Made by a program: the position numbers and the translations under genes. The notes below the pieces were generated by a model. That model made no database searches. It had not been told where the DNA came from and saw only the letters and a list, made by a program, of their open reading frames with translations. From Escherichia phage MN01, in the sequence record MT129652.1: a DNA stretch of 64,000 bases; one strand, 5' to 3'. Positions 1,490 to 7,194 of the stretch are shown here, piece after piece. Within the stretch, counting starts at the first letter, position 1. Every line of letters begins with the position of its first letter.

Positions 1490-2275
1490 TTATTCATCAA
1501 AGAAACTATCGTCAAAGCTATCCTGTTTTGCCTTTGGAGGAGTCTCAAGTCCACGACCATTCTGCACAAAATATGGTTTAACATATTCAGCTGCTTCTGC
1601 GTTAATCTCATCAGATTCTGCATAAGGGATATCGCTGATATCTGTAAGGCCATCAATATTGTGGATTGGTTGTAAATCGAGCTCGCTGAATTCTGAAATA
1701 TTAATACCTTCATTCCGTTGCAATTCAGGTTTAAGTTCTTCCCCGGAGTAAATGTATTTGCTCGCGGTGATTTTACGAATGGCGTTTTGACCCACCTGAT
1801 AGAACGGGTCATAAGGTTGCACCCATGTAATTTCAAACAGGCTGTTATCGAGAGGGAAATAAATCAAATCCCCCGCGATAGGTTCAGTGCCATTACATTG
1901 ATGTTTAAACAGATTAGGGTTAATCGATATTGTGATTTCGTCATTCACCGTCATACCGAATTTACTAAAGATAGAACCATCACCCTGATAAGCATCAAAC
2001 GTATCCAGATAACCAGCAAATTTCCATGCTTTATCGAATTTACTCTGGAGGTCTTCACCGAATAACAAATCCGGTTTAACGAATTGTCTAGGGATATAAT
2101 AGAGAGACATCCCGCGCATCTGAATACTTTCAGCAACAATAGCATCGGCTAAAGTCTGGGTATTTTCATGATGCATAAAGTTTACATAAGGGTTCAATAT
2201 CTCTGTAGCATTGGTATTGTCATACCCGGTCCCGTCTTCGAGCCGGGCGAATAATCTTGAGTCATAAGTAGCCAT
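1490..2275 (-). CDS. 14: neck protein (T4 gp14-like)
   Basis: 261 aa; position between 15 and 13; size matches T4 gp14. Confidence 0.85.
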
Positions 2276-3213
2276 TAGCCCACCAATATAGGAGTTGGTG
2301 CATCCAGCAGGTCAAGTTCCTCACGAAGACGTTCTTTTTCCATGCGAGCTTCTTCGATTAAACGGACACCATCAACCGTGGTACCACCTGGCATCATCAT
2401 CCCCTGGTGTTTAGCCAATACGTTGCCGTTAACTTCCTTAACGAGCGCTGTGGCATAGTCTTTCACCCAACGGTTGTTGTATGCGCCATCTTGAAGTCCA
2501 AGGTCCTCACCGGCTCTCATACCGCTTATTCTGCGCGCTGGGTTATCCCACTGTGCACCCGCATTCCACGGATTATCACAATCGGCCGAAGCAAAACCAT
2601 AGCCAGCTGTATTGCCTACCATTGAATCCACACCGTTATACGATTTGGTATAAACTTCAATTACAATCACATCTCCCTGACGGAAGTTGCCCATAATTTT
2701 AAGTTGTTCAGTATCGTCATTATACCAGTAATCTGGCAGCGGAACCATCAGGTCTTGCATCATTGAACGGTATTGCATAAGCTGTGTAAAATAACCAAGG
2801 TCTGCACCAAAAGCATTTGGACCAAAGCTGTTACATGAGCTACCCATTCCACCGTTAATCCCGGCCAGCCCCAGAACAAAATCTGTGAACCACGGATATG
2901 TTGCTTGCCCGTCCATCGAAGTTAATGAACCGACGTTAGTACGAATAATCTGCGTTACTGCAAAAATATTACGTCCTTTTAAATCGAAAACACCATCACG
3001 GAATTTCTGTTGTGAAACTTCATCATGACCGATATAAAAAGCCTGATAACCTTTGTTATAACCATTATAATGATATTCACCATATAATTCTAATGCGCGC
3101 TGGATGCAATCATAAACCTGTTCGGTCGTAACTTCGATATTCGTGATTGGAGCACCAAGACGACGAAGGATTGCATCTTTTAATTGTTTCGGGTTGTATG
3201 ATTCAGTTGCCAT
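2275..3213 (-). CDS. 13: neck protein (T4 gp13-like)
   Basis: 312 aa; size and position match T4 gp13; overlaps gene 14 start (ATGA-type coupling). Confidence 0.85.
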
Positions 3214-3265: not shown

Positions 3266-5635
3266 TTATGGTGCTGGATTTAATGTCACGAATGTTGACA
3301 AAAGAACCCATGCATTATCAACGAGAACATACGGGAGACCATCATCCGCAGGAGCGACAGGAGGCCTTTTGGAGAGCTCTGTTTCTAAGGCTGATACTTT
3401 ACCTTCCAACGTAGTTATCTTCGTCTCGGCTGCAGTCAGGCGACCAGGAAGAGGAGTTACTGTACCTTCAAGAGTTGTCACACGAGTAGTTAACGGTGCA
3501 ATTTTTGCAGTATCCAATTTAATTGCAGTAATTTCATCTTCAACTGTTGCAACTCTTTCGTCTAGCGGTGCAATTTTTGCGGTATCGAGTTTAATCGTAG
3601 TGATTTCTCCTTCACTTGATGTAACTCTTTCGTCTAGCGGTGCAATTTTTGCAGTATCCAATTTAATTGCGGTAATTTCATCTTCAACTGTTGCAATTTT
3701 TGCAGTATCCAATTTAATCGCAGTGATTTCATCTTCAACTGTTGCAACACGCGTAGTTAATGGAGCAATTTTTGCAGTATCCAATTTAATTGCGGTAATT
3801 TCATTTTCACTTGATGTGACACGCGTAGTTAATGGAGCAATTTTTGCAGTATCCAATTTAATCGCAGTGATTTCTCCTTCCGCCGAAGTCATTCGACCGG
3901 TCAAGGTTACCAAACCACCTTTGTTTGTTTCGATATTTGCTTTAATGGTAACCAGCTCGCCCTCAACATTGCTAACGTCTAAAGCCAAAGCAGTGACATC
4001 ATCATCAGTCGCCGCTGTTTTGGTTTCCAGTGCGGTTATTTTACCGTCAACAGTCGTATCCTTCGTTTCTAATGCAGTGAGTCGACCATCTTGTTCTGTA
4101 TCTTTATTTTGCAGAGCAAGAACATCTGCCTTAACACCGGTGACGGAAGTATTCAGTGCACCATAACGAGTATCTAATGAACTAATTGCCGTATCATTAT
4201 CATCAACACGACCTGTTAATGTTGTTACGCGTCCATCGGTTGTTGCCAATGAAGCTTTAACCGCGTCAACTTCAGTTTTGGAATCGATAATTTCAGCCCA
4301 AGTTCCTTGCTTGCGGCCATATAACTTATTATCTAGTGGTGCGTCGTTCAGCTTGGACGCCATCATCATATCCAAGTTAATTACAACCGGGAGAACACCA
4401 CGTTCAGCCACAGTAGCACCGTTAGGGTTGGTTCCGTTCATCTGACTAGTTAAAGTCAAAATAGAGCCTTTCATACCGGTGGTATTTGTACCGATTTCGG
4501 CCTGTACATCCTGAAGACCCGATGCAGTTTCGTTAGCCAGCGTAGTGGTTGCATTCAACTTATACGTGATAGTGTTTGGCTCCGGAGATTGCTCTGTACC
4601 GATTCTCTGAGAAAGCCATGCAGTGGTTCCGCGTAAACCAGAGCTTGAATCCTGACCAACAACAACCTGTAAGCCATTAACATCCGTCCGCAAAGCACCA
4701 ATTCGACCATTAATTGTCAATGGCTCCAGCGCTGTTCCAATATCGGTTTCAACCTTCGTGAGTCTTGGTTTGATATCAGCAATATCTGTTTCATTGGCTA
4801 AAACACGTCCACCAAGATTTTCAACGCGGGTTGTAATTGCAATCCCTGTACCAAAACCAATAGCTTCTTGAATGTTGACAATATCTTCGTCAATTTCAAC
4901 TGCTTTATCATCAAGAGTATTCAGTCGAACAAATACAGCCGGTTTATCTGTTGCTAAAGTAGACTCACCTAATTCTTCACGAATTTTAATTACTTTTACG
5001 TTAAGAGAACCAACATCAGAATCATGATAGTTATCTTCAAGAGTCTTAATACGAACTCCATGCGCAACAATAGCCGAACTGTTATCGATGATGCGGCGTT
5101 TCATGCCTTTTGACGGATTTCCAATAACCTGAAGACCATTTATATCTTGGTCAACATACTGACCTAATTCATTTTTAATCCATACGAGGTCATTACGAAC
5201 TGTACGATAATATGAATCGGTTAACGGGTCATAAGCACCAACATCTTCCTTTAACTTTTTAAGACCTTCGGATGTTTCGCTTGATAGTAATTCGGTATTA
5301 AATTGACGTTCATCAAGGTCAAGAATATCCGTACGGTTTTTTTCAATTTGTTTAACAACTTCCGTGTTAGTTGTTATATCCAAAGCTTCCTGAATATTAT
5401 TGACGTTATCAATAATTTCGTTGATTTTTTCTTTAGATGCATTTGAGTTGTCGTCGAGTGTATCTACGTTTGTTTGAACGCCAACTGCAGCGGCGTTCAA
5501 ATTACCATCATGACCATATTTGGTACTGGCCGCAGTCATACAATCGCCGTTTTGTATCCAACGAATTCTCTGTTGACCTTCGTCTGGAATACCGATGCTA
5601 TACGGCAGTTCTTTGAGACTGAGTTTATTAATCAT
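3266..5635 (-). CDS. wac: fibritin (whisker/collar protein), expanded coiled-coil
   Basis: N-terminus LPYSIGIPDEGQQRIRWIQNG matches T4 fibritin N-domain; C-terminal foldon-like LPYVLVDNAWVLLSTF; about 790 aa versus 487 in T4; start set at the Met following the gene 12 stop with an AGGA Shine-Dalgarno. Confidence 0.88.
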   Translation of the reverse strand: MINKLSLKELPYSIGIPDEGQQRIRWIQNGDCMTAASTKYGHDGNLNAAAVGVQTNVDTLDDNSNASKEKINEIIDNVNNIQEALDITTNTEVVKQIEKNRTDILDLDERQFNTELLSSETSEGLKKLKEDVGAYDPLTDSYYRTVRNDLVWIKNELGQYVDQDINGLQVIGNPSKGMKRRIIDNSSAIVAHGVRIKTLEDNYHDSDVGSLNVKVIKIREELGESTLATDKPAVFVRLNTLDDKAVEIDEDIVNIQEAIGFGTGIAITTRVENLGGRVLANETDIADIKPRLTKVETDIGTALEPLTINGRIGALRTDVNGLQVVVGQDSSSGLRGTTAWLSQRIGTEQSPEPNTITYKLNATTTLANETASGLQDVQAEIGTNTTGMKGSILTLTSQMNGTNPNGATVAERGVLPVVINLDMMMASKLNDAPLDNKLYGRKQGTWAEIIDSKTEVDAVKASLATTDGRVTTLTGRVDDNDTAISSLDTRYGALNTSVTGVKADVLALQNKDTEQDGRLTALETKDTTVDGKITALETKTAATDDDVTALALDVSNVEGELVTIKANIETNKGGLVTLTGRMTSAEGEITAIKLDTAKIAPLTTRVTSSENEITAIKLDTAKIAPLTTRVATVEDEITAIKLDTAKIATVEDEITAIKLDTAKIAPLDERVTSSEGEITTIKLDTAKIAPLDERVATVEDEITAIKLDTAKIAPLTTRVTTLEGTVTPLPGRLTAAETKITTLEGKVSALETELSKRPPVAPADDGLPYVLVDNAWVLLSTFVTLNPAP
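3470..3880 (-). repeat. tandem 72-bp (24-aa) coding repeat array inside wac
   Basis: six near-identical units EITAIKLDTAKIAPLTTRV(T/A)xx (one truncated to 17 aa) visible in both the protein and the nucleotide sequence. Confidence 0.85.
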
Positions 5636-5643
5636 TTTGGTCC

Positions 5644-7194
5644 TTAGTAATGAATTTTGATAATATAGTTTAAAGACATATTCCATGGGCGAGTTTCATA
5701 TCCAATAAGACCTTCACGGTTTAATGTACCTAAAGCATCTCTGCCGCCACCGAGTTCAAATCCATCGTTAGTAAAATATGAAGCGTTATCCCAGTCCGCA
5801 TATTTTCTTGTGCCCAGATAACCCTGATAAACTGATGCACCAAATGGAGCTTCGTTACGTTGGTATTCACCCCAACCACCCGCGTGTTTATGATATGACA
5901 TTTGCTGAGCTTGTACACCACCAACCCATGAACCATCACAACCAACACCTAAACGGTCTTTGCCATAACCATCTTGACCGCGGTTATTCAGAATATGCCC
6001 ACCGGTACCAGCACCACGAACAAACAAACCACGCATATCAGGAATACCGACGTTGGTCCAATCGCCACCGAAACGAGTTCCAACAGTATTTCGATAGTCA
6101 GGGAATTGGTCACCATTAACAGTGCCGCCATGACACATAATCCAGCCAGGAGGAGCATTATCACCTGCGAACATCATCACCGTTCCAACTGGAACCCGTT
6201 CAGAAGCATAACGCTGTGTAGAAAGTAATTGACCGCCCATATGAGCTGTATTGGAATCAAAATTGCCGGTGGAAATATAATCTAAAGAAAGACTTCCATT
6301 AATTCGTTGACCACCGCGAGTGTTGATTACATCAGCATTCCAAGCCAGCGCACCGGCACCATCACCACCAGGAGCAACCCCAGCCTGAGTGGTTAATCGA
6401 ACGACACCGCGAATATCGGTTGTAGCACCACGACCATTAAGAGTTGCTCCGGTTACCGCAACACCATCAGCACTGTTATTAATCTCTGACTGATTACCAA
6501 GACGAATAATCCCAGCGCGGTCTTGTGTTGCTGTACGAGCATTTAAACCTGCTGGAGAAATTGCCACACCGTCACCCAGGGTTCCTGCTTGCACTTCAGC
6601 ATTTGTAGCAATTCGTACTAAACCAGAAACAGTTTGTGTGGCAGTTGAATAAGTCGGAAGAGCCGCAGTTGCCTTGCCAATTGCCAGAGCAACTTTCAAC
6701 GGAGACATAGCGGTTGTATCATCTGTACCAGCTAACGCTGCATCCTCGGTACTAATACGAAGAACACCCAAATTATTTTCGGTACCAACACGAACAGTAA
6801 AAACATCATCAATTGTTGCTTTTAATGAAGATGGAACAATAGCTGCATCGGTTACTGTCCCGGCAATTGCTTCAGCATCGGTTGCATAACGGGTAATACC
6901 TACATAAGTTTCTGTGGCTTGCGTAGGGATGTCTAAACGAGCTTTTAAGGTCGCTGGAGTAACTGCAGAGTCTGGACTAATACCATCAATAACTTCTTGT
7001 GTGGTGGCTAGTCTGATGAGCCCTGCGGTCGTTTCGGAAGAGGCTGGGATATATCCATCTAACGCAATTTTATTAAGAGACCCTAAAGCCTCTTGTACGT
7101 TGGTAACAGTCGACGGGAAGGCTGTCCCCGTCGGGTCGAACGTTTTATATTCGGATTTATCGCTAATGTGTTTTAGCGTGTTAGTCGTTGTCAT
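5644..7194 (-). CDS. 12: short tail fibre protein (T4 gp12-like)
   Basis: 516 aa; strong collinear similarity to T4 gp12 including C-terminal ...MSYHKHAGG.GEY...TRPWN.SLNYIIK. Confidence 0.9.
   Translation of the reverse strand: MTTTNTLKHISDKSEYKTFDPTGTAFPSTVTNVQEALGSLNKIALDGYIPASSETTAGLIRLATTQEVIDGISPDSAVTPATLKARLDIPTQATETYVGITRYATDAEAIAGTVTDAAIVPSSLKATIDDVFTVRVGTENNLGVLRISTEDAALAGTDDTTAMSPLKVALAIGKATAALPTYSTATQTVSGLVRIATNAEVQAGTLGDGVAISPAGLNARTATQDRAGIIRLGNQSEINNSADGVAVTGATLNGRGATTDIRGVVRLTTQAGVAPGGDGAGALAWNADVINTRGGQRINGSLSLDYISTGNFDSNTAHMGGQLLSTQRYASERVPVGTVMMFAGDNAPPGWIMCHGGTVNGDQFPDYRNTVGTRFGGDWTNVGIPDMRGLFVRGAGTGGHILNNRGQDGYGKDRLGVGCDGSWVGGVQAQQMSYHKHAGGWGEYQRNEAPFGASVYQGYLGTRKYADWDNASYFTNDGFELGGGRDALGTLNREGLIGYETRPWNMSLNYIIKIHY

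Follow-up and report, generated by a model that had tools for sequence, protein, structure and literature searches.

A six-unit, in-frame tandem array in the inter-foldon spacer of a probable JS98-type Gaprivervirus whisker fibritin

Fibritin, the neck whisker encoded by wac, has 487 aa in T4, while in the stretch of DNA analysed here (64,000 nucleotides, referred to as the window) the corresponding protein reaches 789 aa. This raises the question of what the additional residues consist of, and whether such a whisker represents anything unusual. The gene very probably encodes a JS98-type, two-foldon Gaprivervirus whisker fibritin, the spacer of which holds an in-frame array of six units with variable copy number. 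The features on which this assignment is built are collected in Table 1.

The identity of the gene is supported by both homology and context. In a phmmer search, residues 5-416 aligned with residues 4-421 of T4 fibritin (E 1e-87); residues 6-84 matched the N-terminal T4 fibritin fragments 1ox3 and 2ibl, and the homologues in VR26, DK-13 and UPEC07 carry a wac/fibritin annotation. The protein has the conserved N-terminal neck-attachment domain (~50 aa) and, after it, a segmented coiled-coil rod with homology to T4 gpwac. Its gene is flanked by ORFs homologous to annotated gp12 (short tail fibre; 5644-7194, minus strand) and gp13 (neck protein; 2275-3213, minus strand), with no additional ORF between wac and gp13 in the ORF listing of the window. 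An earlier note on this DNA had named the gene as wac, enlarged to about 790 aa and retaining the N-terminal region and the C-terminal foldon of T4 fibritin, all of which is borne out by the gp12-gp13 position, the T4 match and the alignment. That note had also allowed for a frameshift splitting the protein; the array, nevertheless, lies in frame within a single uninterrupted ORF (3266..5686, minus strand). The likely true start of the gene is the ATG at 5635 (MINKL...), because AAGGA precedes it and the protein so defined aligns with the T4 N-terminus. The upstream in-frame ATG at 5686, which would give 806 aa, was discarded for having no ribosome-binding site and for its overlap with gp12.

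Table 1. Features of the wac locus, in coordinates of the window
Feature	Position	Strand	Basis and remarks
wac (fibritin, neck whisker) CDS, JS98-type	3266..5635	-	789 aa plus stop; ORF listing, phmmer, annotated homologues
Shine-Dalgarno-like AAGGA	5641..5645	-	Five bases before ATG 5635; overlaps gp12 stop codon 5644-5646; read from sequence
T4-like part (aa 1-430), with the neck-attachment domain at the N-terminus and the segmented coiled-coil rod	4346..5635	-	Alignment to T4 fibritin, PDB 2bsg/3j2o
Internal foldon-like motif F1 (aa 431-449, DAPLDNKLYGRKQGTWAEI)	4289..4345	-	Pfam Fibritin_C; motif in all relatives
Non-repeated coiled-coil segment, 133 aa = 19 heptads (aa 451-583)	3887..4285	-	Constant heptad register
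Tandem array of six in-frame units (aa 584-720), where five span 72 bp (24 aa) and one spans 51 bp (17 aa)	3476..3886	-	Tandem Repeats Finder, unit dissection, consensus scan
Unit 1, SAEGEITAIKLDTAKIAPLTTRVT	3815..3886	-	Unit dissection
Unit 2, SSENEITAIKLDTAKIAPLTTRVA	3743..3814	-	Unit dissection
Unit 3, TVEDEITAIKLDTAKIA, truncated (17 aa), without exactly one heptad (PLTTRVA)	3692..3742	-	Unit dissection
Unit 4, TVEDEITAIKLDTAKIAPLDERVT	3620..3691	-	Unit dissection
Unit 5, SSEGEITTIKLDTAKIAPLDERVA, which diverges most and has, like relatives, a CTC Leu codon	3548..3619	-	Unit dissection
Unit 6, TVEDEITAIKLDTAKIAPLTTRVT	3476..3547	-	Unit dissection
Conserved terminal coiled coil ahead of F2 (aa 721-764)	3344..3475	-	Constant heptad register; alignment with residues 423-460 of T4 fibritin
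C-terminal foldon F2 (aa 765-782, DGLPYVLVDNAWVLLSTF)	3290..3343	-	Aligned to T4 foldon, PDB 2bsg, 1avy, 2ibl

Beyond the T4-like part, the protein is organized around two foldon-like motifs. The internal one, F1, lies at the end of a Pfam Fibritin_C match (aa 369-449, profile positions 3-90 of 93, E 1e-18), the alignment of the C-terminal one, F2, with the T4 foldon spans aa 759-784, and both motifs were found by a regex check in 17 of the 17 relatives examined. F1 had been overlooked by the earlier note, and the array sits between the two foldons. The F1-F2 spacer (315 aa) is heptad-patterned, with the 133-aa non-repeated segment followed by the array and then by the terminal coil. The 133-aa segment is carried by TH44, VR26 and TH15, and is missing in DK-13, UPEC07 and UPEC01. 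The C-terminal part of the terminal coil (roughly TKITTLEGKVSALETELSKRPPVAP) is common to every Gaprivervirus wac examined, its last ~20 residues being shared with the Dhakavirus wac proteins as well; the N-terminal part, TTLEGTVTPLPGRL, is not in VR7, VR25, SP18 or VR20. An AF2 model of the full-length monomer (8-sequence alignment, mean pLDDT 42.7, pTM 0.20) placed a beta-hairpin at 439-448 within F1 and predicted F2 as a helix, and this low-confidence model is to be read as a weak secondary-structure hint only.

Tandem Repeats Finder reported arrays with periods of 72, 51, 123 and 195 across 3494-3874 (scores 193-514). When the protein was scanned with the consensus unit, the six units scored 76-114, against a maximum of 37 in 200 shuffles, and no other position rose above 31. 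Three positions of the 133-aa segment scored 30-31, which is borderline with respect to the shuffled 95th percentile of 29, and the segment is not claimed to consist of degenerate array units. The longest exact blocks common to units measure 44, 40, 38, 33 and 30 nt. Units are distinguished by linked 'cassette' variants in head and tail, each of the six being a unique variant combination. As its units are fairly diverged, the array should not be put down to recent amplification alone. The earlier note had counted at least six near-identical 24-residue units, repeated almost exactly in the DNA, and had ascribed the extra length to them. Six tandem units are indeed present, although one has 17 aa; the near-exact repetition could not be upheld, the pairwise nucleotide identity among the six units being 69-96% and no exact block exceeding 44 nt. 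As for the extra length, the units account for 137 of the ~302 additional residues, and the rest corresponds to the 133-aa heptad segment, the terminal coil and the second-foldon module.

Coiled-coil prediction had been proposed by the same note, and heptad register analysis gave a coiled-coil pattern for the spacer. The best a/d register of 21-residue stretches was constant (0) for those starting at aa 441-588, stepped through 0, 3, 6, 2, 5, 1, 4 along the six units, and was constant again for those starting at aa 702-747. Unit lengths equal whole heptads plus three residues, i.e. 7n+3 (24 and 17 aa here, 31 aa in Dhakavirus), and therefore the register moves on by +3 with every unit, near Ala-Pro-Leu. 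Motifs of the type R-h-x-x-h-E occur at aa 581, 629, 694, 718 and 732. The array has seven boundaries, of which four show the strict form (before unit 1 and after units 2, 5 and 6); a relaxed RVTSSE follows units 1 and 4, and no motif follows the truncated unit 3. From the sequence, we infer that the spacer is a trimeric alpha-helical structure, in which the in-frame gain or loss of a unit would leave the trimer undisturbed. Each full unit would lengthen the distal rod by roughly 3.6 nm, at about 0.15 nm per residue, and a rigid coiled coil would reach about 47 nm past F1 in the window protein.

That whisker length varies between isolates through the number of repeats, as the earlier note had anticipated, was confirmed among Gaprivervirus relatives. 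The gene has no unit in VR7, VR25, SP18 and VR20, one in TH15, DK-13, UPEC07 and UPEC01, three in VR26, four in TH44 and six in the window. Among the genomes compared, several (TH15, TH44) bear the UNVERIFIED flag, and repeats can be miscounted in assemblies of short reads. Six is the top copy number seen in the genus (0-4 in the relatives), and the 17-aa truncated unit occurs in the window only, among the Gaprivervirus wac genes compared. VR26, TH44, TH15, DK-13, UPEC07 and UPEC01 belong to the window's genus, have the same unit family, and are 92-96% identical to the window in nucleotides over wac codons 1-450. Their fibritins measure 722 (VR26), 748 (TH44), 674 (TH15) and about 541 aa (DK-13, UPEC07, UPEC01). 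In the window's own clade the relatives carry 1, 3 or 4 units and the length differences are whole numbers of units; differences in protein length amount to 41 (24+17), 48 (2x24) and 133 aa. VR7, VR25, SP18 and VR20, with fibritins of 525-528 aa, are far more divergent, since megablast covers merely 5-7% of the gene. Spacer length in the Gaprivervirus relatives is 50-274 aa, as against 315 aa in the window. Positions 6000-30000 of the window are 96-97% identical to P8 and UPEC07, which have one unit, and to the four-unit TH44, and the genes around wac are 92-97% identical among phages differing in copy number. Pattern scans for further copy-number variants returned VR26 itself only in IMG/VR and none in two scans of JGI metagenomes. 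Word-indexed protein searches gave only short-spacer fibritins and unrelated coiled-coil proteins for the C-terminal 354 aa, and no relevant match for the 133-aa segment. The idea that long spacers are rare forms was overturned by tblastn against phage genomes.

Some of the history of the array can be read from its units. Units 3, 4 and 6 are mutually 94-96% identical over the 51 nt that they have in common, and their identity to units elsewhere does not exceed 92%. A TTG Leu codon is present in five window units out of six vs one of ten relative units. There are signs here of duplication or conversion within the window lineage. Unit 1, in turn, is orthologous to unit 1 of TH44, since both are 97.2% identical. 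The proposed route by which copy number would change is gene conversion or unequal homologous recombination, with the identical stretches of 30-44 nt in the units as substrate; it fits a phage group in which recombination is very active. As to the direction of change (expansion vs deletion), we infer it from the distribution among relatives only.

Two rival readings concern the reality of the array and the origin of the spacer. One holds that the number or order of the units is a product of short-read mis-assembly over the repeat. Although exact matches between units reach 44 nt and some related records bear the UNVERIFIED flag, these exact repeats are much shorter than typical reads, every unit has its unique combination of variants, and the array is in frame with the ORF intact. 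Moreover, arrays of three and four units, as well as the equivalent 93-bp Dhakavirus arrays, have been deposited by independent laboratories, and an artefact is extremely improbable. The other reading starts from the resemblance of the spacer to trimeric coiled coils of known structure, namely the gp26 tail needle (4lin_A, E 4e-9) and reovirus sigma-1. According to it, the spacer would have come from a tail-needle (gp26) gene of the P22-like type and would act as an envelope-contacting needle or adhesin, not as a passive rod. In fact, aa 450-618 align with residues 68-230 of the gp26 of PDB 4lin at the E value just given, aa 697-755 with P22 gp26 at about E 1e-4, and P22-like gp26 (PDB 4lin, 2poh, 3c9i) also consists of a long trimeric coiled coil with, in our reading of the alignment, R-h-x-x-h-E-type repeats. 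Nevertheless, the match does not extend outside the heptad region and its compositional bias score is high, reovirus sigma-1 and designed coiled coils score similarly, and the N-terminal and tip domains of gp26 gave no match. The gp26-like segment, furthermore, sits between two fibritin foldons and is kept within wac in two genera, whereas gp26 belongs to another part of the virion, with different terminal domains and gene context, the similarity being confined to heptad repeats. Such an acquisition is very improbable. Membership in the gp26 tail-needle family was likewise rejected: the heptad region alone matches, no tail plug or tip was matched, and the context is a T4-like neck gene cluster.

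Once the array is taken as a genuine part of the fibritin spacer, its effect on the phage has to be considered. T4 whiskers promote tail-fibre attachment and retraction, and T4 fibritin attaches through its C-terminal end to the long tail fibre at the gp35 'kneecap' (PMC3004832; PMC3797505). As the earlier note had suggested, the repeat number might be a tuner; as an adaptive one it would set whisker reach and through it how readily the long tail fibres are kept retracted, with selectable differences in infectivity depending on conditions. Besides these T4 functions, such a role would be in keeping with copy number differing among phages with backbones 95-97% identical, with the conservation of core unit residues via synonymous change (70 synonymous vs 54 non-synonymous codon differences), and with the independent expansion of the corresponding spacer in Dhakavirus by a different unit, which hints at some selection on length. 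However, F1 keeps, in all variants, the T4-equivalent position, and therefore the contact with the tail fibre might stay exactly where it is; F1 would keep the place equivalent to the tail-fibre-binding end of T4. In addition, the gp34-36 span measures 5811 nt in TH15 (one unit), in TH44 (four units) and in the other listed one-unit relatives, and 5868 nt in VR26 (three units). Its equality in one- and four-unit relatives speaks against a simple compensating change in fibre geometry, and no simple co-variation of tail-fibre length (gp34-36 span) with whisker unit number was found among the listed close relatives. Short- and long-spacer forms also coexist in both genera. An adaptive tuner is, on balance, unlikely. 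Quite doubtful, too, is the proposal that the inter-foldon spacer is a fast-evolving 'length dial', expanded independently in two genera by different units of 7n+3 length, so that the extension would have a selectable function of its own, such as setting the conditions of fibre release or touching the cell surface first. The most likely effect of the array would be a tolerated length polymorphism of the distal extension.

The analysis makes clear that what seemed an unusual, enlarged T4 whisker is a described JS98-type fibritin of typical size. To this it adds that in-frame tandem units generate variation in spacer length, copy number differing where wac is 92-96% identical, that Gaprivervirus and Dhakavirus amplified different units in the corresponding spacer, and that the lengths of all units are whole heptads plus three residues. 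No paper on the array was found in the literature on VR26/VR20/VR25 or Gaprivervirus fibritin and on fibritin tandem repeats. The natural series of 1, 3, 4 and 6 units (wac 92-96% identical) could serve as a ready allelic series for relating whisker length to tail-fibre deployment. Also, for protein engineering purposes, the predicted modular trimeric coiled-coil rod, foldon-capped and adjustable in length, could be of use.

With respect to known systems, T4 fibritin (gpwac, 487 aa; PDB 2bsg, 1aa0, 1avy) resembles the window protein in gene position, N-terminus, segmented rod and foldon motif, but ends at its first foldon. Assignment to the T4-type, single-foldon fibritins was rejected, since ~337 residues (spacer and second foldon) follow F1. 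The JS98-type, with two foldons and a coiled-coil spacer of variable length, has already been described (Letarov & Krisch 2013, Ecol Evol, PMC3797505), and self-sufficient foldon trimerisation of JS98 fibritin, with no separate chaperone, has been reported biochemically (PMC3797505); the lack of a further ORF between wac and gp13 in the window would be consistent with this. The window protein likewise combines two T4-like foldon motifs in a single chain (F1 aa 431-449, F2 aa 765-782), separated by a coiled-coil-patterned spacer of variable length, and in tblastn its aa 451-789 aligned with JS98 at 100% query coverage and 52% identity (E 2e-79). Latypov et al. (2007) is a further reference for this type, and AAU29287.1 of phage JS98 is its type protein. 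The window and JS98 proteins have in common the conserved N-terminal domain, the T4-like rod, the 133-aa segment after F1 (62% aa identity) and the last ~20 spacer residues (KITALETEL.KRPPVAP) with the F2 foldon, and JS98 has one copy of the unit EITxIKxDTAKIAPLTTRV. Dhakavirus fibritins have the same architecture and are similar in size (751-827 aa; JS98 751, IME08 799, Esco_phi_B-01 827), with spacers of 219-357 aa, and on this comparison 789 aa is a normal size for the JS98-type. The difference lies in the unit amplified: JS98, IME08, VR5, CLB_P2 and Esco_phi_B-01 have one to five copies of a 31-aa (93-bp) unit, VKVESDKVAGINTRLGTAEGKITTLETGLAA, absent from the window wac, whereas the 24-aa unit, present six times in the window, is single-copy in those Dhakaviruses except Esco_phi_B-01, where a partial duplication gave two core matches. 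The architecture is a known one, and the array is a new example of it, not a new kind of thing.

The wac gene, encoding the fibritin of the neck whiskers, is a single open reading frame of 806 aa counted from its first ATG. Its true start is likely to be the ATG at 5635 (MINKLSLKELPY...), since this is preceded by an AAGGA site overlapping the gp12 stop codon, agrees with the start annotated in VR26, VR7 and JS98, and gives a product aligning with T4 fibritin at residue 4. From there the protein has 789 aa, in keeping with the approximately 790 aa of the earlier note, and the alignment of aa 5-416 with T4 fibritin 4-421 (E 1e-87) establishes it as the fibritin proposed there. The in-frame ATG at 5686 adds a 17-residue extension (MEYVFKLYYQNSLLRTK) overlapping the end of gp12. 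This codon is taken as the wac start in several GenBank records (DK-13, UPEC07, P8), probably wrongly, given the AAGGA site of the ATG at 5635 and its agreement with the N-terminus of T4 fibritin.

Since the Pfam Fibritin_C match runs to profile position 90/93, the T4-like part ends in an internal foldon-like motif, F1 (DAPLDNKLYGRKQGTWAEI). A second foldon, the C-terminal F2 (DGLPYVLVDNAWVLLSTF), aligns with that of T4, and the 315-aa spacer between both contains the repeat array. The earlier note was right as regards gene identity and in-frame repeats, and had missed the two-foldon layout. The protein is a "JS98-type" fibritin of Letarov & Krisch (2013) (PMC3797505), JS98 fibritin trimerising with small foldon motifs alone. 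The short tail after F2 occurs in two forms (...STFVTLNPAP and ...STFVTVGP) among the wac 3' ends of the window and of the relatives' loci L001-L010, distributed independently of spacer type and overall relatedness, which suggests recombination at this end of the gene.

Features of the wac region and other annotated positions in the window
Feature	Position (nt)	Strand	Residues (aa)	Length
wac ORF	3266-5686	-		806 aa
AAGGA site	5645-5641			
N-terminal extension	5635-5686	-		17 aa
Fibritin_C match			369-449	
F1			431-449	
Non-repeated segment			451-583	133 aa
Tail-needle-like region	3782-4285	-	451-618	
Unit 1	3815-3886	-		72 bp
Unit 2	3743-3814	-		72 bp
Unit 3	3692-3742	-		51 bp
Unit 4	3620-3691	-		72 bp
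Unit 5	3548-3619	-		72 bp
Unit 6	3476-3547	-		72 bp
F2			765-782	
Tail after F2	3266-3289	-		
gp13	2275-3213			
gp14	1490-2275			
tRNA-Met (CAT) and tRNA-Arg (TCT), adjacent	26241-26393	+		

Tandem Repeats Finder returned overlapping arrays of period 72, 51, 123 and 195 over 3494-3874 (scores 193-514), which were dissected into exactly six units. These score 76-114 in a consensus-unit scan against a maximum of 37 in 200 shuffles, and nothing else in the whole wac protein scored above 31. The tandem coding array noted earlier is thus genuine, keeps the reading frame and greatly exceeds what chance would give. Its near-identity, with the DNA repeated almost exactly, had nevertheless been overstated: units are 69-96% identical pairwise, their longest shared exact blocks are 44, 40, 38, 33 and 30 nt, and linked cassettes of variants tell them apart (heads SAEG, SSEN, SSEG or TVED; tails PLTTRV or PLDERV, with differing codons). 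The units have thus diverged moderately and make up a mosaic instead of near-identical recent copies. Codon differences summed over unit pairs are 70 synonymous and 54 non-synonymous. The extra length, formerly ascribed to the units, derives from them in part, their 137 aa representing less than half of the ~302-aa excess over T4.

From wac and the neighbouring 24 kb, the phage is a Gaprivervirus, the best matches (96-97% identical) being P8, pEC-M719-6WT.2, UPEC07 and TH44; the sequence search found no identical record for either region. The wac proteins of ten relatives were extracted to compare copy number. Against the six units of the 24-aa family in the window, TH44 (748 aa, spacer 274 aa) has four, VR26 (722 aa, spacer 250 aa) three, TH15 (674 aa, spacer 202 aa) one, DK-13, UPEC07 and UPEC01 (541-543 aa, spacer 69 aa) one without the 133-aa segment, and VR7, VR25, SP18 and VR20 (525-528 aa, spacer 50-51 aa) none, which bears out the suspected variation in whisker length between isolates. 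In the alignment, arrays differ by whole units (41 aa, that is 24+17, 24 aa and 48 aa), and long and short forms lie 133 aa, exactly 19 heptads, apart. Since TH44 and UPEC07 are 95.6% and 95.3% identical to the window over wac codons 1-450, copy number varies among very close relatives. Beside gp13, VR26 (L001 1-444) and SP18 (L009 1359-1994) carry a SegC-like homing endonuclease gene; in the window gp14 directly adjoins gp13 at 2275, without this insert.

Unit 1 of the window and that of TH44 are orthologous, being 97.2% identical. Units 3, 4 and 6 are mutually 94-96% identical over their shared 51 nt and at most 92% identical to any other phage's unit; moreover, the Leu codon at unit position 11 is TTG in all but one of the six window units, and CTC, CTT or ATC in nine of ten units from relatives. 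This pattern fits local duplication or gene conversion in this lineage. Copy number would then change by unequal homologous recombination between the identical blocks of 30-44 nt, in a T4-like phage that is itself highly recombinogenic.

In a register scan of the spacer with 21-residue windows, one and the same a/d heptad register is best wherever the window starts between aa 441 and 588. The best register then steps by +3 per unit across the array (0,3,6,2,5,1,4), in keeping with unit lengths of 24 = 3x7+3 and 17 = 2x7+3 residues, and no longer changes where windows start at aa 702-747, immediately ahead of F2; the shift is located at K-I-A-P-L. Strict R-h-x-x-h-E motifs, reportedly proposed as coiled-coil trimerisation motifs by Kammerer and co-workers in PNAS in 2005, occur at aa 581, 629, 694, 718 and 732, the first four being at array boundaries (before unit 1 and after units 2, 5 and 6), with a relaxed RVTSSE after units 1 and 4. 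An AF2 monomer model of low confidence (pLDDT 42.7) places a beta-hairpin at F1 (439-448) and a long helix along the 133-aa segment, and shows helix breaks separating most of the array units, with units 1 and 2 (~aa 590-623) mostly non-helical; it lends slight support to this reading of the spacer. The spacer also matches the gp26 of a P22-like tail needle (4lin_A, E 4e-9), P22 gp26 (~1e-4) and reovirus sigma-1 (~1e-3), trimeric coiled coils of known structure, matches which are read as common coiled-coil character and not family membership; the likeness to gp26 may be convergent or go back to coiled-coil modules that phage fibres exchanged long ago. In the alignment, the gp26 chain of 4lin has a stretch of ~51 residues (ESRITANTKAITALNVRVTTAEGEIASLQTNVSALDGRVTTAENNISALQAD) twice.

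With the coiled-coil rise of ~0.15 nm per residue, calculated lengths are ~3.6 nm for a unit, ~20 nm for the array and ~47 nm for the whole spacer. T4 fibritin measures 53 nm (PMC3004832); its C-terminal end attaches to the long tail fibre at the gp35 "kneecap", and the whiskers speed fibre attachment and have a part in retracting the fibres when conditions are unfavourable (PMC3004832; PMC3797505). Adaptive tuning of fibre deployment by whisker length, as the earlier note had suggested, is a possible but less favoured reading. No simple co-variation of fibre geometry with whisker length was found among the listed relatives, since the gp34-36 span is 5811 nt in TH15 (1 unit), in TH44 (4 units) and in the other one-unit relatives alike; it is 5868 nt in VR26 (3 units). 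The best reading is a modular rod distal to F1 with tolerated, recombination-driven length polymorphism.

A word-indexed protein search returned no long-spacer fibritin, although GenBank contains those of VR26, JS98 and IME08. The candidate list of this search seems to fill up when the query is a repetitive coiled coil, and missing matches are therefore not evidence of rarity. In fact, tblastn with aa 451-789 retrieved many Dhakaviruses at 100% query coverage and ~50-55% identity, with wac proteins of 689 (dhaeg), 751 (JS98), 768 (VR5), 772 (CLB_P2), 799 (IME08) and 827 aa (Esco_phi_B-01). Bp7-type wac proteins (529 aa) look like the JS98 type with an internal in-frame deletion. Dhakavirus wac shares with the window F1, F2, the last ~20 spacer residues ahead of F2 and the 133-aa segment (62% identity), and has one EITxIKxDTAKIAPLTTRV unit, with a second, partial copy in Esco_phi_B-01. 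Between these shared spacer elements it carries another tandem array, of one to five 31-aa (93-bp) units (for example 2471-2909 of L014, among the Dhakavirus loci L013-L018), in the same place of the inter-foldon spacer and also with truncated 51-bp (17-aa) units; unit lengths in both genera (17, 24 and 31 aa, 31 being 4x7+3) are all 7n+3. Because Dhakavirus proteins are of like size and layout, the window protein is neither unusually long nor new in architecture. Its particular feature is the 24-aa unit, amplified here and single-copy in JS98.
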